Source of the DNA: an uncultured Saccharospirillum sp.
GTDB lineage: Bacteria > Pseudomonadota > Gammaproteobacteria > Pseudomonadales > Natronospirillaceae
DNA length: 64,000 bases
Direction: 5' to 3'
Assembly (NCBI GenBank): GCA_965652395.1
Contig: CBFGUW010000002.1
Coordinates: 57,583 to 121,582, forward strand
Numbering within the stretch: the stretch's first letter is position 1; each line of letters opens with the position of its first letter. The translations under genes were made by a program, and so were the position numbers. Positions 219 to 42,209 of this stretch are shown here, in pieces. Under the pieces are notes generated by a model. The model worked only from the letters and a program-made list of their open reading frames with translations, was not told the origin of the DNA and did not search any database.

Positions 219-510
219 GGAACCTCTGAACAATTCCCCCTGGGCTCTGCGGGAGCCAAAACGTTCTGCCACAGTGGTGCGGCATCCCGACGGACTTCGC
301 AGCGCAATGGCCTTAGTCCTTGTCAAGAAGTCCAACGACGGGGCAGGACGTTTTGGCCCCGCCCGGAGGGGCTTTCCGAGGAACGCTACCACTTCGTTGG
401 ACTCATTTGAAAGGTCTGGACATTCCTGCATGAGTCCGTCGGGATGCCGCATCACTCGCGGTACCGTCCCTCGGAAAGCCAGAGCCCCGGGGGAATTGTT
501 CAGAGGCTCC
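219..510. repeat. ~292-bp palindromic MITE-like element, copy A (terminal inverted repeats GGAGCCTCTGAACAATTCC / GGAATTGTTCAGAGGCTCC)
   Basis: Near-identical second copy at 41948-42209; element is a long imperfect palindrome; copy A carries a complementary extension on both arms relative to copy B. Confidence 0.8.
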
Positions 511-530
511 CAAGACTTGGAGGATAACCC

Positions 531-932
531 ATGGAAACCACGGATCAGCAAGACGAGACCATCGACCGCGTTCGCGCCTTTATTCGCGAACACGCTCCGG
601 ATCTGATCGAAACCGGGGGCGACAGCCGTTGGACGGTGGGGAACATTCTGTTCCGCTACGAATCGGATGCGCCTGGGATGTACGCTTATATGGTCGGTCC
701 GTTGAAGAATGGCAAGGTAAGTTGGCACCTGATGCCGCTGTATGCTGTGGAATCCATCCGGGAAAAATGCTCGGAGCCCTTGAAACCTTTTATTTCGGGC
801 AAAAGTTGTATCCAATTCGCCCGGTTTGATGACTTACCGCTGGAGACTCTGAGGTTGTTGGTCACAGACGGCACGCCCCTGTTCAAAGAGGCGATGGAGG
901 CGCATCTGAGGAAGCGGAAGCCTCGGAAGTAG
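531..932 (+). CDS. DUF1801 (YdhG-like) domain protein
   Basis: 133-aa ORF with GGAGGA RBS 6 nt upstream, immediately after repeat copy A; sequence resembles YdhG/DUF1801 family (family call from memory). Confidence 0.55.
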   Translation: METTDQQDETIDRVRAFIREHAPDLIETGGDSRWTVGNILFRYESDAPGMYAYMVGPLKNGKVSWHLMPLYAVESIREKCSEPLKPFISGKSCIQFARFDDLPLETLRLLVTDGTPLFKEAMEAHLRKRKPRK

Positions 933-1006
933 AAAGCGGAACGGAGACAGGCGCTATACTTGAACTCAAGTTTCAGTGTTAGCGAGATGCTGGTTGCCAG
1001 AATTGC

Positions 1007-1119
1007 GCACCGGCTACCTGGTAGGCCCGTCAAGGGTCGGCATAAACCCATCCATGGGGCCTGGACCGCAGCATCCTTGCTGCGGACCACCCTTGACGGG
1101 CCTACCAGGCATCCGGTGC
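1007..1119. repeat. intergenic hairpin repeat (conserved core AACCCATCCATGGGGCCTGGACCGCAGC...GCTGCGGACC with copy-specific complementary arms), copy 1
   Basis: Core shared with elements at 1651-1774, 6469-6546, 6640-6767 (both inverted) and 63682-63787; arms CCTGGTAGGCCCGTCAAGGGT / ACCCTTGACGGGCCTACCAGG are perfectly complementary. Confidence 0.7.
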
Positions 1120-1166
1120 TCGCCTTGCCTGCTAACACGGACTGTGAGAGTGGGAGGAGGTCAAAC

Positions 1167-1595
1167 GTGCGTCAGTACATTCGACACCCGACAGACATAC
1201 CCCTGCACTATCATCTGGCCGATGAGCCGGAGGAATGCCACCCGCGCTTGAAGGATGTCAGCACGGGCGGTCTCAGTTTTTCCACCGACCAGCCGTTCGA
1301 TGCGGGGCAGATGCTGCGGATTCGCATTGATGTGACCGATCCGCCGTTCGAGATTCAGGGCCAGGTGGTGTGGTGCCATGCCCAGGATGACCATTATCTG
1401 GTGGGCATCAGTTTCGATTCCGTGGAAAAGGCTTTTGCGATCCGTATGGTGGAGCAGGTGTGCCACATCGAGCAGTATCGGTCGGCGGTCAAGCAATTGG
1501 AGCGGCGCGAGTTATCCTCGGAGGAAGCCGCCCAGGAGTGGATTGAGCGCCACGCCCGGGACTTTCCTGCCTGGCAGCCTCGGCAGGAGTCTTGA
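1167..1595 (+). CDS. PilZ domain protein (c-di-GMP receptor family)
   Basis: GTG start with GGGAGGAGG RBS at 1152-1160; RxxxR (RQYIR) and DxSxGG (DVSTGG) PilZ motifs. Confidence 0.65.
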   Translation: MRQYIRHPTDIPLHYHLADEPEECHPRLKDVSTGGLSFSTDQPFDAGQMLRIRIDVTDPPFEIQGQVVWCHAQDDHYLVGISFDSVEKAFAIRMVEQVCHIEQYRSAVKQLERRELSSEEAAQEWIERHARDFPAWQPRQES

Positions 1596-1650
1596 TCGAG
1601 TGTCCCCACCCTCCAACAATGGTTTAGATGTGTGAAGGCTAGCACCGGGT

Positions 1651-1774
1651 GCCAGGTAGGCTCATCCAGGGTGGTCCGCAGTATGGATCGGTCCGACGCC
1701 TCGGCTGCGGCCCAGGCCCCATGGATGGGTTGAGTGGGCGGCATTCCGCACGACCCTGGAGGAGCCTACCTGGC
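1651..1774. repeat. intergenic hairpin repeat, copy 2 (inverted orientation, expanded inner loop)
   Basis: Reverse complement contains CCATCCATGGGGCCTGGGCCGCAGC core; flanked by complementary arms GCCAGGTAGGCTC... / ...GAGCCTACCTGGC; lies between convergent PilZ and pullulanase genes. Confidence 0.65.
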
Positions 1775-1812
1775 AACCGATGCGGGTTCTCGGCACCAGA
1801 CTGTCTAAGGTG

Positions 1813-3984
1813 TCAGTCCTGATACAACACCGTCACAGCCGTCCCCTCGATGTCCACCGTGCCACTAACAGTCCTTCCGTTACCGGCATTCGGATCATTC
1901 CTTTCCATCGCCACCTTCCAGGTGCCGCCCGGTAGCGGGTAGCTGAAGTTTCCGCCCGAAGCGTAAATCACCAGGATTCGCGACCAGTCATCTCCGTTGG
2001 CACCGGCATTGATGTCGGTCACCAAGACATCGTTCGCGTAGCGCGTGGTGGTGACGTGTTGGTCGATCTCGTTCCAGCTGTTCATGCGGAAGCCGGGGTG
2101 GGCTTTGCGCAGGGCGATGGCGTCGCGGTAGTACTGATAGATGTCGGCGTTGTCGATTTTCCAGTTCCAGCGGATTTTGTTGACGGAGTCCGGTGAGCGG
2201 TAGCTGTTATGGTCGCCGTCTTTGTCACGCAGCATCTCGACCCCGCCGTGCAGAAAGGGGATGCCTTGGGAGGTCAGCACCATGCCGTTGGCGAAGTTGT
2301 GAATCCGCCGCAAATAGTCGCTGTTTTCAGGCACGTTGTTGAGCGCCGCCCAGGCGAGGATTTTGTCGCGGAGTGAGAGGTTGTCGTGTGCGGAGACGTA
2401 GTTGATGCTCTGCTCGGGGTCGGTGGCGAACATCGGGTCCCAGAGGTCGATAACCTGGTTCGGGTCGTTGTTGTATCGAATGCCGCCGCGGCTGCCGAAG
2501 TCGATTTGCCAACTTTGGCCTTGGTTAAAGGCGAAGCCTCCACCGTGGCCGCTGTCGTTGTCGCCTTTGATGGCTTCCCGGTATTTCGGGTTGAATACGC
2601 CAACGTGGGCGCTTTCCTCGCGCGCTATGGTGCCGAGGCGAACGCGTTGGGCTTCTCGGGTATCGGTGGCGTAGCCGTTCCAGGGTTCGCCGTAAATCAG
2701 CAGGTTCCGATCCGGGAACTGCTGATTCAAATGACGGCCCCAAGCGCCGAATTCGTCGTAATCGAAGATTCCCACCAGGTCGAAACGGAAGCCGTCCAGG
2801 TTGTATTCACGCACCCAGTATTCGAGGGAGTCCTGGATCATCCGTCCGACCATGGGGACGTTGGCATCCGTTGAGTTTCCGGTGCCGGAGAGGTCGGTGT
2901 CGGTGTAATACTGCATGGAGATGTTTTCGAACATTTCGAAATCGAAGGTGTGGTTGTAGACCACGTCCATTACCACCCGAATGCCCGCTTTGTGGAATTC
3001 GTTGATCATGGTTTTTACTTCGCGCACCCGCTCCAGATAGTCCGTGGTGGTGGCATAGCGTTCTTCGGGCACGTTGTAGTTGCGCGGGTCGTAGCCCCAG
3101 TTATAACAACTGGTGTCCGCCGGATCGGAGCAGGTGGAAAAATCGTAGAACGGTAATATCTGAACGTGGGTGACGCCCAGTTCTTTCAGGTGGTCGATTC
3201 CGGTAGTCACACCCTGATAGGTGGTGCCGCCTTCGACCATGCCGAGGTATTTGCCACGCTTTTCCGGTGATACGCCGGAGGTGGCGTCGATGGTGAAATC
3301 CCGAATGTGGATCTCGTAAATAATGGCGTCTTCACGTTCCACCAACGGCGGCGGTGCCACCCAGCCTCCGGCCGGTTCCGTGCGGCTCATGTCCATCACG
3401 ATGTTCACGTCCTGGTTGGGCAGGGCCATTTTACCGTAGGGGTCTCTCACCTGGACGCCATCGATGGTGAAGTAGTATTCGGCACCGTGCAGGTCTCCGG
3501 CGATTTCGATGCCGTAAATGTGGCTATAGCCCTGTTGATCAGCGAGCCTTGGCAGGGAATATGGCTGGCCGTTGAGCACCAGCCCGACGTTGGCGGAGTC
3601 CGGCGACCAGATGGCGAAGGTGGTTGCGCTCGGGCTGTATTCCGCGCCCAGTCTGTCAACGGTCAGGTTACCGGCCACAGTCTCGACCAGGCTGATCTGT
3701 TGGCTGCCGGTATCGAAGCAGATCTCGTAACGGGTGTCGGCCGCGACGTTATAGTCCGCCGAGGGGTAGCTTTCACTCCAGTCGGCATAACGGTCGATTT
3801 TAAAGCGGGGGCCGCCCGCCGAATCGCCATTACCGAAACTCTGGGTGGTGCACCAGCGGTTGCCGGTTTCCTGAGTCATCTGGGTCGCGCCCCAGCCGTT
3901 TGGCGTGCCGCGAAAATACCAGTCCGCCTGGGCCAGGCTGCTGCTTAGCGCGAGCAGGCCCACCATCGCCGTGATTTTCAACAT
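1813..3984 (-). CDS. pulA: type I pullulanase (GH13 family) with signal peptide and N-terminal CBM-like region
   Basis: YNWGYDP pullulanase motif, GH13 catalytic regions; start placed at MLKITAMVGLLALSSSLAQA signal peptide with AAGAGGAG RBS. Confidence 0.85.
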   Translation of the reverse strand: MLKITAMVGLLALSSSLAQADWYFRGTPNGWGATQMTQETGNRWCTTQSFGNGDSAGGPRFKIDRYADWSESYPSADYNVAADTRYEICFDTGSQQISLVETVAGNLTVDRLGAEYSPSATTFAIWSPDSANVGLVLNGQPYSLPRLADQQGYSHIYGIEIAGDLHGAEYYFTIDGVQVRDPYGKMALPNQDVNIVMDMSRTEPAGGWVAPPPLVEREDAIIYEIHIRDFTIDATSGVSPEKRGKYLGMVEGGTTYQGVTTGIDHLKELGVTHVQILPFYDFSTCSDPADTSCYNWGYDPRNYNVPEERYATTTDYLERVREVKTMINEFHKAGIRVVMDVVYNHTFDFEMFENISMQYYTDTDLSGTGNSTDANVPMVGRMIQDSLEYWVREYNLDGFRFDLVGIFDYDEFGAWGRHLNQQFPDRNLLIYGEPWNGYATDTREAQRVRLGTIAREESAHVGVFNPKYREAIKGDNDSGHGGGFAFNQGQSWQIDFGSRGGIRYNNDPNQVIDLWDPMFATDPEQSINYVSAHDNLSLRDKILAWAALNNVPENSDYLRRIHNFANGMVLTSQGIPFLHGGVEMLRDKDGDHNSYRSPDSVNKIRWNWKIDNADIYQYYRDAIALRKAHPGFRMNSWNEIDQHVTTTRYANDVLVTDINAGANGDDWSRILVIYASGGNFSYPLPGGTWKVAMERNDPNAGNGRTVSGTVDIEGTAVTVLYQD

Positions 3985-4265
3985 GAGTCGAGCTCCTCTT
4001 TTTGTTGTTGTCGCGTCGACTATGCCGTTTTCCCTCGCCCTTTGGCTTCCTCCCTGGGGATGATTTTCCATGCGCTCCAGTCAGCGCCCCGTTCCCCAGG
4101 GCTTTAGAGGGTTTTGCGGCAACGGCGGGGAAACCAACCCTTTGGCAAATTCCGCCCCCGGGGGAGGAAGACCTGAAAGAGCAGTGGGGGCACACTGTTG
4201 ACACTGAGTTGTACCTGCCCGAAATCCGGGCCGCACCCTACAAAAACAACGACGAGGTGATATTC

Positions 4266-6233
4266 GTGACACACTCTGTATTACACCCGAGCCGACTGGC
4301 GCTGGCCGGTTCCCTGGTGTTGGCCTCCCTGGCCATGCCCGCCCTGGCCGATATGGCCGCTTCCGCCAATGTGATGGCCCCGCTTGAAGTCAGCGACTAC
4401 GGCGCGTTCGAAAATCAGCTGCAAACCGCGAAGAATATGGGCGTGACCGCAGTGTCGGTCGATGTCTGGTGGGGCAAGGTGGAAGGCGCCGGTGACCAGC
4501 AGTTCGACTGGGGTTACTACGACGACCTGTTTGGCCGTATCACTGCCGCCGGGCTGGATGTGGTGCCCATCATGTCGTTCCACCAGTGCGGTGGAAACGT
4601 CGGCGACACCTGCAATATCCCGATTCCAGGCTGGATCTGGAACCACTACAGCGTGCCTTCGTCCGACCTGCGCTATAAGAGCGAACAGGGCAATGAATCC
4701 TGGGAAACGGTGTCTCTGTGGGCGGATTCCCTGGTGCTGGGCGAGTATCAGGAATTCATGGAAGCCTTCGAAAGCCACTTCTCCTACATGGCCGGTGACA
4801 TCGATGAGATCAACATCTCCATGGGCCCGGCCGGTGAGCTGCGCTACCCCTCCTACAACAGCCACGACACCGGCAGCGGTTACCCGACCCGGGGCGCGTT
4901 CCAATCCTACAGCGACCCGGCCAAGGCGGATTTCCAGGCTTGGGCTATCGACAAATACGGCAGCCTCTCAGGCGTGAACAATGCCTGGGGCACCAGCCTG
5001 AGTTCCACAAGCCAGATTCAACCGCCCTCCAACGCGGGCACTTTCGTCAGCAACGGCGACCATTACTACACCCAGTACGGTCGGGACTTTGTCCGCTGGT
5101 ATCACGACAGCCTGATGGGCCACGGTTACAACATGATGGACACCGCCCTGGCCGGTTTCGACGGCGCCTTCGCGGACATCGAGCTGGGCATGAAGATTCC
5201 GGGTATCCATTGGAAAATGTCGGCGACGGACAATACCAAGCGCAGCGCGGAAATCGCGGCGGGTTTGATACCCTCCGATGTCGACCTGGACAGCAGCGCC
5301 ACCGGTCACGGTTATGCGGATATCGTGGGTATCCCGGCCAGCTACCAGAGCGAGCCTCGCGGTGTGGTACTGCATTTCACGGCACTGGAGATGAACGACG
5401 ACCCTTACGGCGGCGGTCAGTCCCTGGCGCAAACGCTGGTCTTCTGGGTGGCCGAGGAAGCGGCGAACCAGGGCGTTCCCATCAAGGGTGAAAACGCGCT
5501 GGCCGGTGGTGTCACCAACGATAACGGCTGGGACAACATCGAGAATGCCTTCGACTATGCCAGTTACAGTGGCATGACGGTGCTACGCATCAACCAGGTG
5601 GCCACCGGCGGCACGGGGCAATACCGCTACGAGCAGTTCATCAATAATTATCTGCAGGTGGAAGGCGACTGGCAGCGGACGGTAATCTTCATGTACGGCC
5701 AAACGCAAAGCGGTCAGGATATGTTCATTCGCGGCGGCATCGACCACGATTACGCGAACAACAATCTGGGCCGCAACTGCGCGACGTCGAATTTCGACTG
5801 CGCCATCCGCATCCAGCACAACAATCTGCTCAATGCGACAACCCAACCCTGGAAACAGGGCGATTTGTACCTTGACTGGTACGGCCTGGAGGCCAATCAG
5901 GGTTCCGGTGCCGAGGGAACAGCGATGGATTGGACGACTAACCTGTGGCCAACCAGCTGGGGCACAAAGCGCACGGTGGCTGTCGACGGCTACGGTGAAG
6001 AACCGCTGAACAATTACGGTGACCATTACTGGATGCTGGATGTCCAAATGGACTGCTCCAACACCGTCAATGGCTGGTTCGAACTCAAGTCCTACATTTC
6101 CAACGGTCCTGGCTGGGAAGGCACCATCAGCCAAAGCGGCACGCCATATGCCTCCGGCAACCACATGGCGCAGTGCGGCAAGATCAACGTCTTCCAACGC
6201 AACAACAGCAGTGCTCAGATCCTGAACTTCTAA
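4266..6233 (+). CDS. beta-amylase (GH14) with signal peptide and ~230-aa C-terminal extension of unknown family
   Basis: [27 protein letters not shown] (catalytic Glu) and FTALEM (second catalytic Glu) motifs of GH14; GTG start with GAGGTGA RBS; signal peptide [28 protein letters not shown]. Confidence 0.85.
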
Positions 6234-6257
6234 CGCTAACTCTCTGTCGGACTTCAC

Positions 6258-6280
6258 GGGCGCTTCGGCGCCCTTTTTTT
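6258..6280 (+). terminator. rho-independent terminator of beta-amylase gene
   Basis: GGGCGCTTCGGCGCCC hairpin followed by T7 tract. Confidence 0.6.
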
Positions 6281-6287
6281 GCCTGTC

Positions 6288-6444
6288 GTTTTGGGATGGT
6301 GCCTCTGCTCGTTATGGCTAAGCCTTCTACGGTGTCTATCGTTTGGAATTGTGCCACTGTTTTATACGGCTAGGCCTTCTACTCTGCCTATGGTTTGGGA
6401 TGGTGCCACTGTTTTACGCGGCTAGGCCTTCTACTTTGCCTGTG
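6288..6444. repeat. three tandem direct repeats of ~52 bp (GTTTGGGATGGTGCCACTGTTTTA.GCGGCTAGGCCTTCTAC...)
   Basis: Units at 6288-6340, 6341-6392, 6393-6444 with ~85% identity; each unit contains a GGATGG/GGAATT motif and a palindromic GGCTAGCC. Confidence 0.8.
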
Positions 6445-6468
6445 GTCCGTGCCTGCTACTGGGGTAAG

Positions 6469-6546
6469 CCCCTGGAGGGCACGCCATTAACCCATCCATG
6501 GGGGCTCGGCGGCGCGCATCCCTGCGCGCCGACGTCCCTCCAGGGG
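6469..6546. repeat. degenerate copy of intergenic hairpin repeat (core CCATCCATGGGGG + inner stem GGCGCGCA/TGCGCGCC)
   Basis: Arms CCCCTGGAGGGCACG / CGTCCCTCCAGGGG complementary; inner stem-loop differs from other copies but preserves pairing. Confidence 0.5.
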
Positions 6547-6639
6547 CTTCCCCCAGCATCAGGCACTTGTTCTTAGGCTGACTGTGAATTGTATGATCCC
6601 TTTTTGCTTTATGGTTCAACCACAGTTGGAGTATGGGTG

Positions 6640-6767
6640 GGTCGAGGGGTCGGGGACTACCCTATGGGGATGTCGGCAGTATGGATCGGTCCGACGCCTC
6701 GGCTGCCGTCTAGCCTCCATGGATGGATTCACGGCGACCCCAGAGGGTAGTACCCGACCCCTCGACC
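6640..6767. repeat. intergenic hairpin repeat, copy (inverted orientation)
   Basis: Shares GCAGTATGGATCGGTCCGACGCCTCGGCTGC and CCATGGATGG core with 1651-1774; arms GGTCGAGGGGTCGGG.ACTACCCT / AGGGTAGTACCCGACCCCTCGACC complementary. Confidence 0.7.
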
Positions 6768-6935
6768 CGCCCTGGCACAAAAGGAGCACTACAAAAGTGC
6801 CACCAAAACAACCACGGGCACAAAAAGGGTAGGAAATATCAAACTACGGGCTAATTCGTCCTGATAGTGGGAGGAGGGTTGATTTAGGCTTGCGGGCGGT
6901 ATGGACTATTACAGCGTTCCTATTGAGCCCGGTAC

Positions 6936-9614: not shown

Positions 9615-9720
9615 CGCCGATTGACCGCTTTTTGAGAGCACCAGGCAAACGACCATTGCAGCGCCGCCCGGCACACCCCATACAGAAAGAGGTTAACCCC
9701 AAGGAAAAGGAGTCACTGCT

Positions 9721-10146
9721 ATGACACCCAGCCAAATCATGCTGCTTTGGAGTTTCGGCGGCCTGGCCACTTTCGTGATACTGGCCCTGTTGCCCTGGGT
9801 CAACCTGGGCATGATGGGTTATCTCAGGGAGTTCAGCGCACTCATTCTGGCGTTTCTCGCAGGCACCCTTTGGCTTCCGGCGGTGCGTAACGCCGATGAC
9901 CGCCACCCTAAAGCCACGGCTCTGGCCATGGCGATTTTCCTGCTGTGTTGGCTGGCGCTTTTCATTCCGGCCTGGGCTGCAGTGGCGCTATTGACTGTGG
10001 GCTACCCGGTGGTCTGGTGGTTTGAGCGCCACTGGTATGGTGCCGATCAAAGTCTGGATTACCGAAACCTCCGCACCCTGCTGACCTGGGGTGTGGTGGC
10101 GGCTCATTTACTGGCTCTGGCGGCGCTGTCCCGCAGTCCGGGTTAA
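9721..10146 (+). CDS. small integral membrane protein (4 predicted TM helices)
   Basis: AAGGAG RBS; hydrophobic segments throughout. Confidence 0.5.
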   Translation: MTPSQIMLLWSFGGLATFVILALLPWVNLGMMGYLREFSALILAFLAGTLWLPAVRNADDRHPKATALAMAIFLLCWLALFIPAWAAVALLTVGYPVVWWFERHWYGADQSLDYRNLRTLLTWGVVAAHLLALAALSRSPG

Positions 10147-10391
10147 TGGCCATTCCTAGTGGATACTCAGTGGAACTGGAACTTTATTACGTTCCGACTA
10201 GCGATACTCAGTCGAAGTCCCTCAAAAAAGTCTGAAAACGGGGGTTTTCCACGTTAAAATGGTCGCCAAACAGAAGCGCTCGCCACCATGGCTGTAATTT
10301 TGTTACATTCAGCGCTCTTCAACAGACAGCGGCAGGGTCGGACAGTAACCTTTCTCCGGCCTCTGGAACCAGCGACAACACGTTAAAGGTA

Positions 10392-11363
10392 GTGCAGGCC
10401 ATGATTAATAAAATTGGTGTACTGACCAGCGGAGGCGATGCGCCGGGCATGAATGCCGCCGTTCGCGCCGTGGTAAGAACCGCGATCAGCAAGGGTGTTC
10501 AGGTATACGGTGTCTGGGATGGGTATCTCGGTTTGCACCAAAACCGTATCGAGAAACTGGAACGCCACGACGTTTCCGACCTGATCAACCGGGGCGGCAC
10601 CTTTCTGGGCTCAGCCCGGTTCCCTGAGTTCAAAGAGGAATCCGTGCGTCGCGAGGCCATTGAGAACCTGCGGGAACACGGAGTGGAGGCTCTGGTGGTC
10701 ATCGGCGGTGACGGCTCCTACATGGGTGCCAAACGCCTGACCGAAATGGGCTTTCCCTGCATCGGCCTGCCGGGCACCATCGATAACGACGTGGCCGGAA
10801 CCGACTTCACCATCGGCTTCCACACCGCCCTGAATACCGTCCTCGACGCTATCGATCGTTTGCGCGATACCTGCTCCTCCCACCACCGCATCGCCATTGT
10901 CGAGATCATGGGTCGCTACTGCGGCGATCTGACGTTGATGGCCTCCATTGGCAGTGGCGCCGAATTCACCATCGTGCCGGAAAAAGGGTTCGATGAAGAG
11001 TCTTTGATTCAGACCGTAGCCCAGGACGTCGCCGCCGGTAAAAAACACTCCATCATCGCCATCACCGAGCATGTGACCGATGTCAGCGCGCTCGCCAAGC
11101 GAATCGAAGCGCGGACTGGCCTGGAAACCCGGGCGACGATTCTCGGTCATATTCAACGCGGCGGTGTCCCCTGCGCCTTCGACCGGGTATTGGCGAGTCA
11201 AATGGGTTCGTACGCGGTTGATCTACTGATTGATGGTGTAGGTGGCCGTTGTGTCGGTATCCAGAGCAACAAGCTAGTCCACCACGACATTGTGGACGCC
11301 ATCGAAAACATGCCCAGACCGTTCAAGCAGGACTTGTACGATTTGACCAGTCTGCTGGCGTAA
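10392..11363 (+). CDS. pfkA: ATP-dependent 6-phosphofructokinase
   Basis: [37 protein letters not shown] motifs. Confidence 0.9.
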
Positions 11364-11395
11364 AACCTTGTAACGCTGGATGCTAAACGGGAGAC

Positions 11396-11427
11396 GGGAG
11401 ACGCTTACTTAGCGTTCAGCGTCTCCC
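11396..11427. terminator. putative bidirectional terminator hairpin between convergent pfkA and motB
   Basis: GGGAGACGC ... GCGTCTCCC 9-bp stem; weak U-tract; same 20-mer occurs inverted at 16757-16790. Confidence 0.35.
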
Positions 11428-11447
11428 GTCATGCCTCTCCCGGCCTC

Positions 11448-12410: not shown

Positions 12411-12428
12411 CTCTACTCCGGACCCGGC

Positions 12429-13742: not shown

Positions 13743-13753
13743 GCCCTCCCTGA

Positions 13754-20318: not shown

Positions 20319-21782
20319 TTATAAGCCTGGAAGCGTATAAATCAACGGTAATTGAATCCGAACCACCAACCCACCCTGGGGATGGTTCTCCAACACCAAG
20401 TCGCCCCCATGCCCGTGAATAATGCTCTGGGCGATACCCAAGCCCAGGCCCATGCCCCCTGCATTCATGGTTTTTCCGTGATCCAGGCGGGTATAGGGGT
20501 TGAACAGCGCCTCGGGATTGTCGGTTTGCAGGCCGGGGCCATAATCCCGAATGATGATGACCACCTGATCGCCTTCTGTGCCCAACCTGACATCAGCGCG
20601 TTGACCGTATTGAATGGCATTTTCGATCAGGTTGGTGAGGCATCGTTTCAGGGCCAGGGGTTTGCCGATGTATTGGGCATCCTGTTCGATCCGGACCGAA
20701 ACACTCTGATCCGCCAGTTGTTTTTCATGGGCGATTTTTTGCAACAGCGCACCCAGGTCCACCGGCGTTGGCTCTTCATGGATGTCTGAATCCCGCACGG
20801 TTTGCAGAGCGCCCTTCACCATCATTTCCAGCTCTTCCAGGTCTTCGTCGAGCGAAGCCCGCAACGCGTCATCATCTATCATTTCCGCCTGCAGACGCAG
20901 GCGGGTTATCGGTGTTCTCAGGTCGTGCGAGATGGCGGCAAACAGCCGCTCCCGATCGTTCAGGTAGCGTTGAATGCGCAGTTTCATGGCCTGGAAGGCT
21001 TCGGCGGTCGCGTCCAACTCACGCATACCGGAGGCCTGAACCGGTGCCAACTCCAAGCCCCGGCCAAACGCATCCGCCGCTTCGGAAAGGCGCCGCAGAG
21101 GCCTTGTCTGCCAACGCACGAACAAAAAACATAACACGCCCACCACCAACAGGGTAGCACCGAGAGACCACCACCGGTCCCGCGTGAGAACACGGTTTTT
21201 GTCCAGCAGATAGGGGTCCGGCAGGAGAGTGGCCAGATACAGCCATTGGCCGTTATTCAAACTCACCTGGGTGGTGAGAATGGGTGCGGGGTCCGGTTCC
21301 AGGATCAGGCTTTGCCGAATCCACCGTACCGGGATGTCGGCAATGGGAATGCGTTCGTCATAAACCCGAACCTGGTCCGGCATCGATAACCCCAGTTCAA
21401 GCGTGACACCGTCCAGTTCGTCGTTCAATTGGGTGTGGATCGCCTCCAACAGCGGCTCCCTCAGCGGAGCGTCCACTTCCTGAGTCATGGGCACCCGCAT
21501 CTTGTTCACACTCATGAACAGACGACTGCCACCGACTTCCCGCTGCTGGTCAATGACTATGGGGCGAACGTTATCCGGTAGCGCCAGAAAATAACGGATC
21601 GTGGCCGAAAGCGAAGTGGCCAGATATTGGGCGTTTTTCTCCATGCGCTGGCGGCTGTCACTGTCGAGCTGTCCGGCCCAGATCAGGCTGGTGAGGATCT
21701 GCGCCAAGGTGATACCGGTCAACATCACCAGCAACAGCCGCCCGAATAATGACCGGGGTAACCATCGCTTAAGGCCGGTCAT
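20319..21782 (-). CDS. sensor histidine kinase (EnvZ-like)
   Basis: HAMP, H-box AISHDLRTPITR, N/G1/G2 ATP-binding boxes (GGMGLGLGIAQS); start MTGLKRWLP overlaps RR stop. Confidence 0.8.
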   Translation of the reverse strand: MTGLKRWLPRSLFGRLLLVMLTGITLAQILTSLIWAGQLDSDSRQRMEKNAQYLATSLSATIRYFLALPDNVRPIVIDQQREVGGSRLFMSVNKMRVPMTQEVDAPLREPLLEAIHTQLNDELDGVTLELGLSMPDQVRVYDERIPIADIPVRWIRQSLILEPDPAPILTTQVSLNNGQWLYLATLLPDPYLLDKNRVLTRDRWWSLGATLLVVGVLCFLFVRWQTRPLRRLSEAADAFGRGLELAPVQASGMRELDATAEAFQAMKLRIQRYLNDRERLFAAISHDLRTPITRLRLQAEMIDDDALRASLDEDLEELEMMVKGALQTVRDSDIHEEPTPVDLGALLQKIAHEKQLADQSVSVRIEQDAQYIGKPLALKRCLTNLIENAIQYGQRADVRLGTEGDQVVIIIRDYGPGLQTDNPEALFNPYTRLDHGKTMNAGGMGLGLGIAQSIIHGHGGDLVLENHPQGGLVVRIQLPLIYTLPGL

Positions 21783-28900: not shown

Positions 28901-28917
28901 GAGATTAACTTGACGGC

Positions 28918-29559: not shown

Positions 29560-29574
29560 AGCCGGAGACTGAAA

Positions 29575-30267: not shown

Positions 30268-30330
30268 CCTGGATTACCAGACAAGGCGGCGCACTCGTCA
30301 CCTTGTCTCATTACCTTAAGGGATCATTCC

Positions 30331-30969: not shown

Positions 30970-30992
30970 TCGCTAAAACGGAGACTTAATCT

Positions 30993-33008: not shown

Positions 33009-33026
33009 TCTCCGGAGACAGGGACC

Positions 33027-36000: not shown

Positions 36001-38282
36001 CCGCCATTCTCGCACGATTAATGCCCGTCAGGGCTCAAGCCGGTTTACTTCGCGTCGCACCCAAAGCCCGGTCTCTCGCCATGCTGTTCTGGGCCGCCGG
36101 TCAGAAAGAGCAACCCCAACGGGATTGGCCACAACGCGCCCGCGCCGCCACCCACATGGCCAGACTGTTTGCTTCGCGCGGCGCCCACGATTTACTGGTG
36201 GCCGAGGCATCCAGACTCCTTACTCAATTCGTCGAGGCGCACCAACTCCCGATGACGGAGCTTGAGTGTCAACGGGCGGCGGACTATCTGATTTCAGAGT
36301 TATCGGAGGAAAGACCCTCCTTTGGCATCAGTAAATACGCTCAGAGGCTGGCGGATGAACTGCGACAAAGGATGGATCAAAACAGCTGGCGCGATTACCA
36401 AAACGCTCTAGCCCAATTGAAAGGCCAGCCGGGTCCGCGCTGGGCGCTGACCGAAGCCTGGTTATTGGCCCTGGTGCGCACCGAAGAACTTGCCGGGCTC
36501 AGAGCCTACATACCCGAGGCGGTTGCACTCGTTAACACCGAGGAACGAATCGACCTGCGCCCGTCGGAAGTCGATCTGTCTTTCGAGGTGACGGGTCTGC
36601 TCGGCCAACACAGTCGAATCAAAAACCAATGCCTGTCGCTCCGGCTTGATGACTTCATCGAACGCCTGGATCACTATCGGGAAGTCACACTGCCCGGCTA
36701 CAGGGCCTATCTTGATTTACGTGGCAAGGTGCTGCATGAAGCAAGAGAGTCCATGCGGTTGGATGAATTCAAGCCTCGGCCTCTCAGTTCTTTCGTCCGC
36801 AACAAGCTGATCAACGAAGCTTACCTGCCCATTATCGGTGACAATCTCGCCAAACAAATGGGCACCGTGGGAGACACCAAACGCACGGACCTGATGGGCC
36901 TGCTTATGATGATCTCACCGCCCGGTTACGGTAAAACCACCCTGATGGAATACGTCGCCAACCGGCTCGGGTTGATTTTCATGAAGATCAATTGCCCCTC
37001 GCTTGGTCACGATGTTCTCTCACTCGATCCGGAACAAGCACCGAATGCCACCGCACGTCAGGAGCTGAACAAACTCAACCTGGCGTTGGAAATGGGTAAC
37101 AACGTCATGTTGTATCTTGACGATATTCAACATACTCATCCAGAGTTCCTGCAAAAATTCATCTCCCTGTGCGACGGCACCCGACGCATCGAAGGCGTGT
37201 GGAAAGGCCGAACGCGGACCTACGACATGCGCGGCAAGAAATTCTGCGTGGTCATGGCCGGAAACCCCTACACCGAATCCGGCGAGGCGTTCAAAGTGCC
37301 CGACATGCTGGCCAACCGGGCGGACATTTACAACTTGGGTGATATTCTGGGCGGCATGGAAGAGCAGTTCGCACTGTCGTTTATCGAAAACTGCCTTACC
37401 TCGAACCCGGTACTGGCGCCACTCGCCACGCGCGAAATGTCGGATTTTTACAGGCTTGCCGAACTGGCCGCCGGTAATAATGTGAGCACCAACGACCTGT
37501 CGCACGACTATTCCGCCGCTGAAGTTGCGGAAATCACCGGCGTATTGAAAAAACTCTTCGTCATTCAGAATGTCGTGCTTAAAGTAAACCAGCAATACAT
37601 TCACAGCGCCGCCCAGGCGGACAAATACCGAACCGAACCGGGCTTCCGTTTGCAGGGTTCCTACCGGAACATGAACAAGATGGCCGAAAAGGTCTCGGGC
37701 ATTATGAACGACGCCGAGCTCAACCGCTTAATTGACGACCACTACCTCGGCGAAGCCCAGCTGCTGACCTCCGGTGCCGAAGAAAACCTGCTTAAACTGC
37801 GTGAAATCAGGGGCATTCTCACGGAACAGGAGACCCAGCGTTGGCAGCAAATAAAAGCCGACTTTCTGCGCAACAAAGCCATGGGTGGTGAAGACGCCGA
37901 CACCGGCAGCCGGGTCGTCGCCCAGTTGGCCGACATCGCCGCGGCATTGCAACAACCGGAAACAAAGGGAGAGCCCAATTGGCAAGCCCCGTTGGCGGCT
38001 CTTGACCAGGGGTTGAAACAAATAGCCTCGGCGCTCACCAAGGCCCAATATCAGGTGGAAGTCATCAACCAGCCGGTGCCAGGAATGGACAAAGTCCTGA
38101 ATACGCTGGCCGATACCGTGGAGAATTCCCTGATGCCGTTGGTTCACGCCATGGAGGGAAAACTCGGTATCGATCTGCGTACACACGACCGTCTGGTCTC
38201 CATCAGTCAGGAAATAAAAGAGCTTAAGCAGGAAGTGATCCGCACCACATCGGTTAAACATCGGCCGGTGGCGGATAGCTGA
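33027..38282 (+). CDS. 1751-aa multidomain protein: beta-rich N-terminal region, long alpha-helical/coiled-coil middle, C-terminal MoxR/AAA_5-type AAA+ ATPase
   Basis: Single uninterrupted ORF; Walker A SPPGYGKTT (~36921-36941), Walker B VMLYLDD (~37111-37125), sensor-1 VMAGNPY, LANRADIY; 18-nt gap after flotillin stop. Confidence 0.7.
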   Translation: MTTDHQDVSQQEQDSAIDKAVSEGGAYDVIRKRLLDQGRQLATEVEHLNNARLEEFGNTGQEVIGRMRVRTENNCVARDIVRVGENLLFGYNVYIGLKQTTRIEDVFALFRLVDQGGQFEMEAVSLKPSFLSDPGFIKDFEELYTYYKQTKLIQLLVINGKLLAAFQIGERASDIRVFRWSVSADGQEVRYIDNRGERDIALPPAHDFEWTATTRDDIVHGSQPHVNILDTLFVETLQGELTIKVENNTEDGLGLYREPVEEANQSLTDAEFHYARLGELILLKVLPYREDAPRHFVFNSLTQSVHRIDALGEACQQLPEDHGIIFPGGYYLTNGEMKQFESNSQGLKFRRVIKSPNGEDVLYVFYEPEEGRVELFPYNLINKALSNPIVGHGYALGEDGKLVIFTAEGEPTRVHPMQVWQTPFFTEEFASAQPPSQSFYGRIGNPELVRGISEIYSIVRTINQQSASSRLYSDLAQHCRKVFDAYHWLDTQELQAAATLIKEIANTAELVLDEFEKVQTIREQAETALRDARADQAKLIGQLHIDSWQRPDQYVDALAQLRRQRGRLLTIRELRYMDVAEVDALENELVTADDRVASATATFLAGEEALSPYLTRLNEIQEAIEAADTIAELKPELATLDQLSEGLDLLSELAAGLKVEDATQHTRIIDSIGEVYALVNQRKAQARNKQQNLGGAEARAQFAAQFKLFSQSITNALSLARTPEQSDEQLSRLLVQLEELEGQFSEHDEFLGDILTKRDEIHESFEAHRQRLMDERHARAQSLFDAASRILDNLQRRANKFDKAEELNSYFAADAMVLKLTDLARNLRVLDDVVKADDIDARLKSIKEQAIRGLRDKTDIFEEGGKVIKLGPRHKFSVNTQEPDLTLLPREDDLYLHLTGTDYYEALNHSELNACRPFWHQTLESENEQVYRAEYLASRIMEAADRNLEGLDIEQLEYAASDSKALLELVRRYSAPRYKEGYEKGIHDADAAAILARLMPVRAQAGLLRVAPKARSLAMLFWAAGQKEQPQRDWPQRARAATHMARLFASRGAHDLLVAEASRLLTQFVEAHQLPMTELECQRAADYLISELSEERPSFGISKYAQRLADELRQRMDQNSWRDYQNALAQLKGQPGPRWALTEAWLLALVRTEELAGLRAYIPEAVALVNTEERIDLRPSEVDLSFEVTGLLGQHSRIKNQCLSLRLDDFIERLDHYREVTLPGYRAYLDLRGKVLHEARESMRLDEFKPRPLSSFVRNKLINEAYLPIIGDNLAKQMGTVGDTKRTDLMGLLMMISPPGYGKTTLMEYVANRLGLIFMKINCPSLGHDVLSLDPEQAPNATARQELNKLNLALEMGNNVMLYLDDIQHTHPEFLQKFISLCDGTRRIEGVWKGRTRTYDMRGKKFCVVMAGNPYTESGEAFKVPDMLANRADIYNLGDILGGMEEQFALSFIENCLTSNPVLAPLATREMSDFYRLAELAAGNNVSTNDLSHDYSAAEVAEITGVLKKLFVIQNVVLKVNQQYIHSAAQADKYRTEPGFRLQGSYRNMNKMAEKVSGIMNDAELNRLIDDHYLGEAQLLTSGAEENLLKLREIRGILTEQETQRWQQIKADFLRNKAMGGEDADTGSRVVAQLADIAAALQQPETKGEPNWQAPLAALDQGLKQIASALTKAQYQVEVINQPVPGMDKVLNTLADTVENSLMPLVHAMEGKLGIDLRTHDRLVSISQEIKELKQEVIRTTSVKHRPVADS

Positions 38283-38824
38283 TGGCGAGATTACGCTCCG
38301 CTTTTATCGCCGTCGCGCTCATTTGGGTGGTTTTCTTGGCCAATGCATTCCTGCCAACAATTGAACTGCGCACTTTCGGCGTACTGCCCCGCGACCCAGA
38401 CCGCCTCTGGGCGGTTCTGACCAGCCCCTTCCTGCACGGTAACTGGCAACATCTGATCGGCAACAGCATTCCGCTGTTCATTTTCAGCTGGCTGGTGCTG
38501 CGCCGGGGGCAGCGACGCTATCTCACGGCCAGTGCCTTCATCATCATTGTGGGGGGGTTGATCCTCTGGCTGATCGGTCGCCCGGCACTTCATATTGGGG
38601 CCAGTGGCTGGGTATTCGGGCTCTGGGGGCTGATCATCGCCGATGGCTGGTATGAGCGCAGCCTGGCAGCGGTGCTGACCAGCCTGGCGGTGATCCTGCT
38701 GTACGGCGGAATGCTCTGGGGGCTGCTGCCCCAGGCCACAGTGAGCTTCGAAGCCCACCTGGGAGGCTTGGTGGCCGGTGTGATGTATTCGGCACTGAGT
38801 CATACCCGGAAACAGAAAAGATGA
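38282..38824 (+). CDS. rhomboid family intramembrane serine protease
   Basis: FLHGNWQHLIGN (TM2 motif), GASGWVFG (GxSG catalytic Ser), HLGGLVAG (catalytic His); ATG overlaps stop of upstream ATPase (ATGA... coupling). Confidence 0.75.
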   Translation: MARLRSAFIAVALIWVVFLANAFLPTIELRTFGVLPRDPDRLWAVLTSPFLHGNWQHLIGNSIPLFIFSWLVLRRGQRRYLTASAFIIIVGGLILWLIGRPALHIGASGWVFGLWGLIIADGWYERSLAAVLTSLAVILLYGGMLWGLLPQATVSFEAHLGGLVAGVMYSALSHTRKQKR

Positions 38825-38897
38825 AAGCAATGACATCCCTCAATGACGTTGCTTCCTTCGGGCTGTTATCATAGCCGCCATTCCCAATTACCCGAGT

Positions 38898-40127
38898 GTG
38901 CTCATGGAGCCCTTTGACATTGCCATTGTCGGCGGCGGCATGGTGGGTCTGACCCTGGCATCCGCACTTCGCCCCGCACTGGACGCCGGTGCCCGGCTGG
39001 TTTTGGTCGACCCCGCGCCTCAGCCGACCGATTCCGTCCCACAATCGCCCAGTTTCGATGACCGGGCCACCGCCCTTTCCTCCCTCACCTGTACCGCGCT
39101 GGACCGCCTCGGCCTGTGGTCCCGCCTGGAACCACACGCCAGCGCCATCAACTGGATTGAAGTGAGCGATCGCGGTCATGCCGGTTACCAGGTGATGGAC
39201 GCCAAGGAATTTCCGGGCCATCCCTTTGGCTCTGTCGTGGCCAACCGGAACCTGGGTGTGGTGCTCTGGCAGGGTTGTCAGGATCTGCCTTCGGTGGAGT
39301 GGCGTTTCGATACCAGTGTCGAACGCCTTGAACCCGACAATGAATACCAACAACTCCAGCTAAGCTCCGGCGAAACCCTTCGCGCCCGTCAGGTGTTTCT
39401 CTGCGATGGCGGTCGTTCGCCGCTGGCTCGCCGCCTGGGCATTCAATATCGCCAGCAGGATTATCAGGCCAGCGCGCGCGTGGCCTCCGTTCGCACCGAG
39501 GAACACCACGGCGGCCGGGCGTTCGAACGCTTCACTGAGGACGGCCCGATTGCACTGCTGCCCTTCGGCGAGTATTCAGCTCTGGTCTGGACTGTTCCGG
39601 ATCGCCTGCTTTCCCGCATACGGGCTATGAGCAAGACTGAACAGCTTGGCTGGCTCAACGAGCGTTTTGGCCAACGTCTGGGGCGCATCACTGACATCAG
39701 CGACCCCTCAAGCTACCCCCTTATTCTGCGCCAATGCCGGGAACCGGTTCGCCACCGGTTGATGGTGCTGGGAAACTCCGCAGCCACGCTCCACCCGGTC
39801 GCGGGGCAAGGCTTCAATCTCGCCATGCGTTCCGTGCTGAGAACCGCCGAGCGTATTAACGCCACCCTGCTCAATGCCCGGGACCCTGGTGATTATCGGG
39901 GCCTGCGCGACCTCGCCGCAGAGATTGATCGCGACCAACGGCTGACCGCCACCCTGTCGGATGGCCTGGTGCGTACCTTTGCCAATCCACAGCCCTGGTT
40001 CCAACTGGGGCGCAACCTCGGTCTGAACATGCTCGACCGTCACCCTTTACTCAGCAAAGCCTTCACCCTGACCAGCATGGGGGTACTGCAAGGAGCCCCA
40101 CTACCCAAAGGAGATGCCGTTCTATGA
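38898..40127 (+). CDS. ubiH: FAD-dependent ubiquinone biosynthesis hydroxylase, UbiH/UbiF/UbiI(VisC)/Coq6 family
   Basis: [17 protein letters not shown]-binding GxGxxG; family architecture; E. coli-like ubiH-ubiI tandem. Confidence 0.6.
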   Translation: MLMEPFDIAIVGGGMVGLTLASALRPALDAGARLVLVDPAPQPTDSVPQSPSFDDRATALSSLTCTALDRLGLWSRLEPHASAINWIEVSDRGHAGYQVMDAKEFPGHPFGSVVANRNLGVVLWQGCQDLPSVEWRFDTSVERLEPDNEYQQLQLSSGETLRARQVFLCDGGRSPLARRLGIQYRQQDYQASARVASVRTEEHHGGRAFERFTEDGPIALLPFGEYSALVWTVPDRLLSRIRAMSKTEQLGWLNERFGQRLGRITDISDPSSYPLILRQCREPVRHRLMVLGNSAATLHPVAGQGFNLAMRSVLRTAERINATLLNARDPGDYRGLRDLAAEIDRDQRLTATLSDGLVRTFANPQPWFQLGRNLGLNMLDRHPLLSKAFTLTSMGVLQGAPLPKGDAVL

Positions 40128-41338
40128 CCACACACCACTCGCACGATGCCATTATTGTTGGCGGCGGCATGGTAGGCCTGGCACTGGCGGTGGCCGCCGC
40201 TCGCGAAAATCTGTCCGTTCTGGTGATCGAGCAACACTATCCGGAAATCGAAGCGCCTAATCCGGGCAAATTCGCGCCCCGGGTAAGCGCGATCAGCCAT
40301 CACAGCCAACAATGGCTCGCCCGCCAGGGTGCCTGGCAGCGACTGCCCAAAGGGCGGGTGTGCAGCTACGGGCACATGAGCGTTTGGGACGGGCTCGGCA
40401 GCGGCCACATAGACTTCGACGCCGCCGAGGTGCAGGCCGAAAGCCTCGGGCACATCGTGGAAAATCACTGGGTGACCCAGGCACTGTGGGAAACCGCCGA
40501 AGAGCACCCCACCCTGCAACTGGTGGCTGGACACAAAGTGGCACACTGGGAGGAATCCGAATCCGGTGTCGAGGTGACGCTGGATGACGGTCAGGCGTTC
40601 TCAGCGCCGGTGTTGGCCGCCTGTGATGGCAAATTCTCTAAAATTCGGGAGGAAGCAGGCTTTGATACCCGGGAGTGGGCCTATGGCCACACCGCCCTCG
40701 TCACGTCGATCCGGCACAGTCATTCCCATGCCTTCACCGCCCGCCAGGTGTTTCTGGATTCAGGACCGCTCGCCTTTTTGCCACTCACCGACGAAACCGG
40801 CACCAGCGAATGGTCTTCTATTGTCTGGAGTGCTGAAACCGAGCGGGCGGAAGCCTTGTTTCGACTCGATGAGGCCGAATTCCTGACTGAATTGAACCGT
40901 TTCAGCGAGGGTTGCCTCGGGGAAATCACCGCCACCGATCCGCGCTTCCGCTTTCCACTGACTCAAATGCATGCCAAGCGCTATTGGCGTGGCCGGGTTG
41001 TCCTTCTGGGGGATGCGGCCCACGCCATCCACCCTCTTGCAGGCCAGGGTGTGAACCTGGGTTTTTTGGATGCGGAAGCCCTAAGCCGGGAATGGGTAGA
41101 GGCCAAAAACCAAGGCCGCTCGACCGGCGATGCCTGGACGCTGAGACGTTTCCAACGAAAGCGTCAGGCCCACAACCTGGCCGCAATGGCGACGATGGAA
41201 GGTTTCAAGCGTTTGTTTGGCACCGACCACCCGGCACCGGTGCTGTTGAGAAACCATGGCCTCGCCTTGTTCGATCGCTTCACGTTGGCCAAACGCCCTT
41301 TGATTCACGCTGCCATGGGTGAATTCACCGGGGGTTAA
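40124..41338 (+). CDS. ubiI: FAD-dependent ubiquinone biosynthesis hydroxylase, UbiI(VisC)-like
   Basis: [14 protein letters not shown] GxGxxG; start overlaps upstream stop. Confidence 0.55.
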
Positions 41339-41799
41339 ACGGCCCCCTCGAATCCTATCTGGCGCCAAGCCTCGTATACCATGATGGCTGCCGCATTCGA
41401 CAAGTTCAGGCTGCGGCTGTCCGGTGTCATTGGCAAGCGCAGCACCTGGCCTTCCGGCAGCGCTTCGCGCACCTCAGCAGGAAGCCCGCGGGTTTCCGGT
41501 CCGAACATCAAATAATCCCCCGGCTGAAAACGAACATCGGACGGGTAGCGCTTGCCTTTGGTCGAAAGCGCGTACAGCCGCTCTGGTCTGGCCTCGGCCA
41601 GAAAAGCCGCGTAATCCGGCCAGATTCGGATATCAGCGAACTCATGGTAGTCGAGCCCCGCCCGGCGTAGCGCCTTCTCTTCCATACTGAACCCCAAAGG
41701 CTCGATCAGATGCAGGTGGCAACCGGTGTTGGCACACAACCTGATAATGTTACCCGTATTGGGCGGAATTTCGGGCTCGAAAAGCACGATGTGAAACAT
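41335..41799 (-). CDS. trmL: tRNA (cytidine34/cmnm5U34-2'-O)-methyltransferase TrmL (SpoU family)
   Basis: [26 protein letters not shown] and SLN(L/V)S.A SPOUT motifs; 154 aa. Confidence 0.85.
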
Positions 41800-41947
41800 G
41801 ACCGGTTTTTCCTTTAGAATTGTGAGACAGTTAACAATAAATCACATACACTGCGGAAAATTCGCTTGTGTTTTTGACGCCAAGGCCGACAACACCGTTA
41901 GAAGGCGTCAAGAACTTGAACATCCATAAGGACATCGCGCCGCTTTA

Positions 41948-42209
41948 GGAGCCTCTGAACAATTCCCGCGCGGCTCTGCGGGAGCAAAAACGCTTTGCCA
42001 CTAGGCGGACTTCGCAGCGCAATGGCTGGTCATTGTCAAGAAGTCCAACGACGGGGCAGAGCGTTTTGGCCCCGCCCGAAGGGGCTTTCCGAGGAACGGT
42101 GCCACTGCGTTGGACTCATTTGAAAGGTCTAGACATTCCTGCATGAGTCCGCCTTGTGGCACCGTCCCTCGGAAAAGCCAGAGCCACGCGGGAATTATTC
42201 AGAGGCTCC
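41948..42209. repeat. palindromic MITE-like element copy B (~262 bp)
   Basis: ~90% identical to 219-510 apart from matched indels on both arms; TIR GGAGCCTCTGAACAATTCC / GGAATTATTCAGAGGCTCC. Confidence 0.8.

Follow-up and report, generated by a model that had tools for sequence, protein, structure and literature searches.

Does a short palindromic repeat that occurs twice in one stretch of bacterial DNA owe its persistence to its ends, by which it could move, or to the structure into which it folds? The question is raised by 64,000 nucleotides from the genome of an uncultured Saccharospirillum sp. (GenBank assembly GCA_965652395.1, contig CBFGUW010000002.1, positions 57,583 to 121,582 of the forward strand; this whole stretch is called the window below), in which an earlier note, made from the letters alone, had marked two copies of a palindromic element and held their folded form to be selected. 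The analysis reported here identifies both copies as MITEs (miniature transposable elements with inverted repeats), i.e. small non-coding transposable elements. It also makes it likely that they are mobilised by the IS5 group of insertion sequences (ISs) and that they carry a selected core of two hairpins; that the arms act as handlers at the level of RNA is a more tentative proposal.

Mobility and IS5-type ends

The two repeats, copy A (219-510, 292 bp) and copy B (41948-42209, 262 bp), were confirmed at the coordinates where they had been reported; both are shorter than the ~500 bp that bounds a MITE, they are 86% identical and they share their orientation. In pairwise comparison the similarity of A and B ends at the terminal inverted repeats (TIRs), and the flanks are therefore not duplicated. 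The inverted termini described by the earlier note, at 19 bp, are real; the TIR has a 20-nt core and extends to ~31 nt. With up to three mismatches, GGAGCCTCTGAACAATTCCC occurs at four sites in the window, 219, 491 (-), 41948 and 42190 (-), against 0.01 expected from shuffled sequence, and self-alignment of the element yields a quasi-palindrome that is well paired over its terminal ~31 bp and further inside changes by turns between paired and unpaired stretches. Neither a further copy of the element nor any similarity to a transposase was found in the 64-kb window. A coding reading of the element was considered and rejected: either strand of copy A has one frame open, which is not so in copy B. 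Coding capacity is absent, in that the open reading frames (ORFs) crossing A and B differ, the copies differ by indels of 14-16 nt, and the stems covary regardless of frame.

The ends themselves are those of known insertion sequences. The same TIR 20-mer terminates elements of ~1.17 kb in Microbulbifer, Pseudoxanthomonas and an uncultured gammaproteobacterium, and an element of 1.47 kb in a metagenome-assembled genome (MAG) of Planctomycetota, and each of these full-length elements encodes a protein of 309-337 aa (309 aa in the ~1.17-kb type) with DDE_Tnp_1 and DUF772 domains (E 1e-33 and 5e-18). Plasmid-borne relatives of this transposase are annotated as IS5 family, the transposase is ~58% identical to the enterobacterial IS5 type, and the Marinobacter relative has the TIR GGGAGACTCTGAATAA. 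Full-length and small elements alike are flanked by CTAG, CTAA, TTAA or TTAG; among the TIR classes tallied, YTAR stands on both sides in classes 1-3, and the three class-4 copies are without it. The target-site duplication (TSD) is CAAG on both sides of copy A and TTA on both sides of copy B, and whether 3 or 4 bp are duplicated is ambiguous across copies. The testable marks of the IS5 group, a transposase with DDE_Tnp_1 and DUF772 beside the TIR and a YTAR target with a short (4-bp) duplication, were thus both found.

Insertion polymorphism completes the case for mobility. TrmL of the window organism is 88% identical to that of S. salsuginis, and by its sequence the organism is close to Saccharospirillum. 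The spacer between trmL and mshI measures 555 bp both in the window and in a metagenomic contig that is 99.9% identical; without the element it measures 291 bp in locus L186 (TrmL 98% identical), and in S. salsuginis and L189 it is 258 and 251 bp long. Located by protein-based look-up, the site of copy B proved empty in L186, L188 and L189, and comparison of the empty and filled sequences (Table 1) implies that TTA (or TA) was duplicated on insertion. The comparison of orthologous intergenic regions that the earlier note had proposed as a check on mobility yielded an insertion polymorphism at trmL-mshI, and its label of 'MITE-like' is borne out by the TIR common to IS5-family elements, by the target duplications and by the empty site.

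Beyond the window, at least six Saccharospirillum genomes, as well as metagenomes, have homologous copies at unrelated sites, the metagenomic ones being associated with the assembly breaks typical of repeats; S. salsuginis has copies at other sites (L007, L010) and none at trmL-mshI. A TIR scan over one genome per species (64 loci) located full homologues of the ~265-bp element in Saccharospirillum species only, with a diverged one in Gilvimarinus. Every testable feature of a MITE was accordingly found: size, TIRs, target duplication, lack of coding content, and copies that are dispersed and polymorphic. Among the fetched Saccharospirillum loci there were no orthologous filled and empty pairs, and no empty site was obtained for copy A, an exact look-up of the DUF1801-like protein beside it returning no record. 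BLAST of two TIR classes against plasmids gave no match, and scans of viral contigs for the TIR and for the core found none.

Derivatives with internal deletions, in which both TIRs and the YTAR flanks are retained, were observed at L013:4517-4613 (97 bp), L039:125-194 (70 bp), L031:1015-1059 (45 bp) and L040:1946-2113 (168 bp), the smallest being two TIRs that abut. Two candidates did not hold. L086 is a truncated relic beside ABC transporter genes and no autonomous element with arms, and the ~270-bp 'elements' of the Planctomycetota MAG are the left end of the 1.47-kb IS, with an unrelated interior. In that MAG (L036:4880-5150; also L001, L015, L052 and L059) the ~270 bp that follow the same TIR form an AT-rich leader before the IS5-family transposase gene, with a TATAAT-like box and an internal TIR-like repeat; the copies at contig ends are probably ends of this IS and not MITEs.

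A conserved interior between different ends

The subterminal regions of the full-length IS5-family elements, which lack the arms, have nothing in common with the interior of the MITE; the interior is therefore not derived from the IS and is no remnant of a deletion. A metagenome scan for the inner motif (TTCGCAG(N)GCAATGG...TTGNCAAGAA) returned at least 120 loci. The window's TIR is present in 7 of those listed, and most of the loci listed have the same inner architecture between quite different TIRs, as marine metagenomes show (for example TGGGCCAAGTGGAAAGTTCTGTAAC, TGTAGTGTCCTATACTGCAGCAGG and TTAACCCGGCATCAATCTATGCC), mostly flanked by CTAG. The shared order runs from a TIR stem through TCAG, the left arm, a small CCC-N4-GGG hairpin, the right arm and CTGA to the other side of the TIR stem. 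Each arm begins with a 19-bp stem of free sequence, followed by an internal loop (5' CAAGGCG, 3' GCAAC), a 7-bp stem with TTC/GAA at its end and, at the apex, GCAG GCAATGG ... TTGNCAAG. MITEs are usually seen as decayed ISs with a drifting interior, whereas here the interior is the most conserved part of the element, and its core is conserved more widely than the TIRs.

A covariance model (R1) built from 17 left arms matched the window at four sites only, namely the two left arms (+) and the two right arms (-). Since a model of left arms finds the right arms on the opposite strand, the element consists of two inverted copies of one module, here termed module H. One left (L) and one right (R) arm occur together in 49 of 50 elements, and the L-type and R-type copies have evidently been distinct since before the TIR classes diverged. 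The element carries a conserved structured core in place of leftovers from a parent IS, with inverted L and R modules flanking a small GC hairpin, an arrangement from which it follows that one single strand folds as a cloverleaf closed by the TIR stem. One-armed versions of ~160 bp, with IS5-type TIRs and a single, more diverged module, were found at L072:3540-3703, L127:10178-10340 and L178:~458-618; the L127 copy is nested in the terminal repeat of another element, with TTAA duplicated. Four further loci that share the TIR (L027, L049, L048 and L033, the first two also sharing the cloverleaf outline) gave no match to R1 and were set aside as other families or as too diverged. No autonomous element bearing arms was found among the fetched loci.

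Rfam gave nothing relevant for the window at gathering score, for copy A at E <= 10 (chance-level matches only) or for three other TIR classes at E <= 1. The module motifs had no match in the searchable literature, and two recent MITE surveys carry no description of the element. The hairpin module is, then, a structured module that is in no RNA database or paper that could be searched, and its core is conserved far beyond this genome. Rearrangements within the family include one in the right arm of L155:244-519, whose apical ~50 nt, unlike those of any other copy, have been flipped in place by an inversion across the inverted repeat that the arm itself forms; the central hairpin has a loop that is found in either orientation within the family.

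Which fold is kept, and on which strand

Both strands of both copies fold better than shuffled sequence, with z = -11 to -15. The earlier note had taken one long palindrome to be the conserved fold, and this did not hold. When 19 whole elements that have the TIR type of the window were aligned with MAFFT and the two folds compared, a cloverleaf of the TIR stem, two arms of ~100 nt and the small central hairpin had 91.1% of cells paired, a covariation score of 0.304 and 168 cells with changes on both sides, against 83.4%, 0.146 and 84 for the long hairpin, much of whose signal derives from the TIR stem common to both folds. In the most abundant TIR class the rod cannot form, because the outer stems of its two arms are unrelated in sequence. 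Energy predictions for the window copies differ, copy A preferring the rod (-172.7 vs -145.5 kcal/mol) and copy B, like most relatives, the cloverleaf (-161.6 vs -143.4 kcal/mol). A selected pairing between the two arms was also considered and rejected, as a change of CAAGGCG in one arm was not followed in the other.

The evidence for selection lies instead in the two local hairpin arms, where covariation extends across a large family. In the seed alignment 24 of 35 pairs have compensatory double changes. Among 124 distinct module copies from metagenomes, changes on both sides are seen at 34 of the 35 pairs. The share of paired cells, to be read as an upper bound, is 95.9% and drops to 31-45% once the partner column is slid, and none of 500 shuffles reached any of the observed values. 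Stem positions have 3-6 pair types each and adjoin invariant loops, which cannot be an effect of alignment. The arm stems are, as far as comparison of sequences can tell, kept by selection on a single-stranded form, be it RNA or single-stranded DNA (ssDNA). The claim that the folded form is selected survives in this sense, while the reason first given for it, the paired insert discussed below, and the long hairpin first proposed do not.

The arms are, moreover, polar. Scored in the orientation that the asymmetric loops set, cells of G·U type outnumber those of A·C type by 202 to 56 among module copies and by 42 to 8 among representatives less than 70% identical, and the excess is present arm by arm (left 56:21, right 64:7). 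In a comparison free of alignment, 41 of 47 representative arms fold better as RNA in the sense strand than in its complement (p = 2e-7, mean -6 kcal/mol). Mutation bias linked to replication or transcription cannot explain such polarity, because the arms of one element have opposite sense strands. The selected strand at each end is apparently the one that reads inward from the terminus, which both RNA entering from the flank and ssDNA would fit. What makes the core unusual is the combination: its stems covary like those of a bona fide structured RNA, it is polar at each end, and it is common to elements with different ends.

The mirrored insert of copy A

Selection on the fold had originally been argued from compensatory indels of ~14 nt on the two arms of copy A. 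A mirrored insert does exist, the 18-mer GTGGTGCGGCATCCCGAC in the left arm being matched in the right arm by its reverse complement with one G·T (Table 1), and copy B has short versions at the insert positions, with one T·T mismatch. However, the net size is 14-16 nt, the insert lies in internal loops, and it is one-sided in relatives. Both inserts occupy the same position of the module (CAAG/TGATGCGGCATCCCGA/CGGAC), which is an internal loop and no conserved stem, and a paired insert occurs in only 1 of the 19 aligned copies. Elsewhere the segment is confined to the left arm in L038, and it is present in the left arm of L040, which, like L096, is without a right arm, in that of the decayed L096, L156 and L176, and at the centre of the element in L148. 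In 1.06 Mb of fetched sequence the segment GTG[GA]TGCGGCA[CT][CT]CCGAC (16-18 nt) was found only inside these elements, at three different positions, and it behaves as a small insertion without obvious mechanism.

The right-arm insert has copy A's private T (GCATCCC), for which a single templated copy from arm to arm in the lineage of copy A is the simplest account. The inverted apical segment of L155 shows that the family does undergo DNA-level events of such a sort. The second insert is thus probably a templated copy and not a proof of selection, and the insert of copy A is weak evidence for selection. The segment would most likely have been copied between the arms by hairpin-templated synthesis or intra-element conversion, and its presence may be what switches the predicted fold of copy A to the rod.

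What the arms may do

In the reading that we prefer, an IS5-group DDE transposase acting in trans would recognise the TIRs over ~20-30 bp and insert the element at YTAR-like sites, with a duplication of 3-4 bp. Each arm might then act on the transcripts that read in from its own side, a guess to which we commit ourselves tentatively and with less than even confidence: the arm would be a stable hairpin that forms a 3' end or a processing site, and the TIR duplex would offer a substrate of RNase III type. Arms of this kind would insulate the insertion, so that landing on stop codons or in short intergenic regions becomes tolerable and copies persist. Handling of read-in transcripts at the RNA level would account for the polarity being inward, for the dyad symmetry and for the tolerated insertion at gene ends.

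Several points weigh against this account. No autonomous IS5 copy was found in any Saccharospirillum locus examined, so we infer the mobilising enzyme of this genome, the IS5-type partner with a matching TIR being known from other genera only; nor was a partner IS for the class 2 and class 3 TIRs found among the fetched loci. Neither copy encloses a whole consensus of a sigma-70 promoter or of an intrinsic terminator. The pairing percentages from alignments A4 and A6, which were fitted to the model, are inflated and are to be read as upper bounds, and many of the metagenomic module copies are closely related, so that their cells are not independent events. Finally, a simple 3'-end hairpin would have no need of the conserved loop sequences, which suggest a specific binding partner.

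Such a partner would be expected if the arms were cis-acting cofactors of transposition. The transposase or a host factor would then recognise them, single-stranded or extruded, so that proliferation would be limited to copies in which they are kept, and any effect on host transcripts would be incidental. A core conserved across TIR classes and in one- and two-armed forms would suit that role, as would a polarity symmetrical about both termini, as for transposon ends, and the very numerous class 2 copies with identical TIRs, which imply recent amplification. Against it, full-length IS5-family elements with the same TIR have no arms, and the transposase therefore needs none on its own element; armless, internally deleted copies (45-97 bp) keep intact TIRs and flanks; and ssDNA hairpins are not known to play a part in DDE transposition of the IS4/IS5 type. 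On balance we consider a cofactor role a serious rival, though less likely than not. A different kind of doubt would deny the arms any role at all, the palindrome being a by-product of template switching, intra-element conversion and hairpin-loop inversion whose fold is under no selection. The apparently templated second insert of copy A, the insert of L038 in one arm only, the apical 50 nt inverted in one arm of L155 and the two orientations of the central loop are all of the sort that these processes would leave. Yet L and R arms stayed distinct in every TIR class tallied, and are therefore not being homogenised; the inward-strand G·U excess in both arms cannot stem from a symmetric DNA process or a genome-wide strand bias; and unpaired motifs are conserved while the stems vary. 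An origin as by-product alone is accordingly judged improbable.

Strong covariation, RNA-like G·U polarity and the position of copy A, close enough to a start codon to lie in the 5' untranslated region or to carry the promoter, could also be read as signs of a host structured non-coding RNA or cis-regulatory leader that merely resembles a transposon. This is contradicted by the empty site and by insertion polymorphism with target duplication, and the IS5-type TIRs, the nested insertions and the assembly breaks speak against it, as do flanking genes that are unrelated and stand in all arrangements and both orientations, and the absence of any Rfam family even at E <= 10; we hold it very improbable. 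Segmental duplication or a chance palindrome, for which the lack of anything beyond two copies in the window could be cited, is refuted: similarity stops at the TIRs, homologous copies stand at unrelated sites in the other genomes and metagenomes, and shuffles never give TIR matches. The counter-case that the earlier note had itself named, in which only these two copies exist and arose by segmental duplication together with their flanks, fails on these two counts, as there are copies elsewhere and the flanks are not duplicated.

If the mobilised MITE with a selected core is the right description, a wider and more speculative proposal can be made, to which we give only modest credence. Module H may be a new and widespread functional structured nucleic acid that travels in IS5-type MITEs with interchangeable ends and acts single-stranded with its polarity fixed at each end, perhaps as a structure-dependent cofactor of DDE transposition or as a mobile RNA module beside stop codons, be it an insulator, a processing site or a site where protein binds, and the Correia elements of Neisseria may be its reduced relatives. 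Were the module needed for transposition, IS5-type transposition would contain an unrecognised step that depends on single strands or structure; were it to act on RNA, it would be a mobile regulatory or insulating module spread across marine proteobacterial genomes, often at stop codons.

Comparison with known systems

The element resembles IS5-family MITEs and their counterparts in eukaryotes, the Tourist MITEs of the PIF/Harbinger superfamily, which are likewise short and non-coding, with TIRs common to IS5-group ISs, a YTAR/TTA-type target, a duplication of 3-4 bp, insertion polymorphism and internally deleted derivatives. It differs from them in its conserved two-hairpin core and in having no deletion remnant of a parent IS.

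In behaviour the nearest analogue is the Correia element (CREE/NEMIS) of Neisseria, which has a TA-containing target and no known transposase. This MITE is palindromic; RNase III cuts its folded transcripts, and the element can supply promoters or an IHF site (PMC10969869). The published Correia ends, tatagtggattaacaaaaatcaggacaa (PMC5039591) and 'caggacaaggcg', have two motifs in common with the family, TAGTGG at the class 2 terminus and CAAGGCG in the module's internal loop. Correia elements are unlike the window element in being 100-155 bp long, AT-rich and restricted to Neisseria, and their 26-bp inverted repeat, TATAGTGGATTAA..., bears no resemblance to the window TIR, TAGTGG occurring only in another TIR class. 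The right half of the Correia element, which we take to be CAAGGCGAGGCAACGCC, would have the two loop motifs of the module next to each other, which is no more than a lead. The short common motifs hint at a possible distant kinship.

REP/REPIN and ERIC sequences of gammaproteobacteria are also dispersed intergenic palindromes that are kept as hairpins, often just after stop codons, and that act on mRNA ends. REPINs, however, are ~100 nt long, start with GTAG, depend on a RAYT (HUH) transposase and lack an IS-type TIR or TSD, whereas the element has no GTAG-type REP units and its ends are of IS5 type with TSD; a RAYT gene was not searched for genome-wide. REP, ERIC and IS5 are all present in E. 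coli, and a blastn search of the element against 5,426 genomes of this species gave no match. The bridge RNA of IS110 and the omega RNA of IS200/IS605 resemble the core in having two stem-loops with conserved internal loops in a mobile element, and strong covariation, but each adjoins the gene for its recombinase or nuclease, and its loops vary in step with the target and donor DNA. The loops of the window element are invariant across TIRs and targets, its TIRs and TSDs are of DDE type, and it has no Rfam match.

Gene context and other features of the window

That both copies lie 5' of genes, as the earlier note pointed out, is true of the window, but the family has no such preference: related elements are found in intergenic regions of every arrangement (convergent, tandem, divergent) and point either way. 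The start codon of the DUF1801-like gene follows the end of copy A by 21 nt, with the gene's GGAGG just after the element, from which it follows that the transcript of this gene starts in the element or carries it as a leader; copy B has trmL on one side and a PilM/PilN-type pilus operon on the other. One weak promoter-like match (9/12) on the minus strand, 42222-42194, overlaps the right end of copy B. The DUF1801-like gene and the pilus operon are each separated from their upstream region by a very stable predicted structure of 260-290 nt, and the close relative without the element at the pilus locus offers a natural comparison for expression.

Across the family, 13 of 80 element ends fall on a stop codon that closes an ORF of 90 codons or more, compared with 11 of 920 random positions. 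The coincidence would be expected if in GC-rich genomes YTAR were available mostly as TAG or TAA stops. Instances include L082, L088, L098, L110, L132 and L171; in L082 both of two convergent ORFs stop in the two CTAG flanks.

Table 1. Parts of the two element copies, with positions in the window
Feature	Position	Strand	Remark
Copy A, left target-site duplication CAAG	215..218	.	CAAG recurs at 511-514
Copy A, left TIR (IS5-type)	219..249	+	stem P1 with 480-510; 20-nt core identical to IS5-family TIR
Copy A, left arm, module H sense on +	246..361	+	model R1 match 265-356, 44.6 bits; alignment A3/A7
Copy A, 18-mer GTGGTGCGGCATCCCGAC	274..291	+	inside internal loop of left arm
Copy A, small central hairpin (GGCCCC GCCCGGA GGGGC)	355..372	.	
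Copy A, right arm, module H sense on -	371..483	-	model R1, 28 bits, E 5e-4; insert at the left arm's model position
Copy A, 18-mer in internal loop of right arm (GTGATGCGGCATCCCGAC on - strand)	438..455	-	
Copy A, right TIR	480..510	-	
Copy A, right target-site duplication CAAG	511..514	.	
Copy B, left target-site duplication TTA	41945..41947	.	empty GCTTTAAACGTGGCA in L186 vs filled GCTTTA[262 bp]TTAATCGTGGCA
Copy B, left TIR	41948..41978	+	
Copy B, left arm, module H	41975..42074	+	model R1, 79.5 bits, E 7e-16
Copy B, central hairpin (CCCCGCCCGAAGGGGC)	42070..42086	.	
Copy B, right arm, module H	42084..42182	-	model R1, 61.8 bits, E 8e-12
Copy B, right TIR	42179..42209	-	
Copy B, right target-site duplication TTA	42210..42212	.	

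The window holds a second, unrelated repeat family at 1007-1119, 1642-1783, 6449-6566, 6635-6772 and 63679-63790, with a weak member at 21323-21357. Its units are hairpins of ~115-140 nt with arms of ~31 nt and a conserved loop (..AACCCATCCATGGGGCCTGGACCGCAGC..), for which Rfam gave no match at gathering score; two of them are inverted around the ORF 960-1595. Directly before one such hairpin, at 6290-6446, a 52-nt unit is repeated three times in tandem with 74-75% identity. The sole Rfam match in the window is an ordinary feature, the ribosomal protein S15 leader (RF00114, 47 bits) at 63464-63587 on the minus strand.

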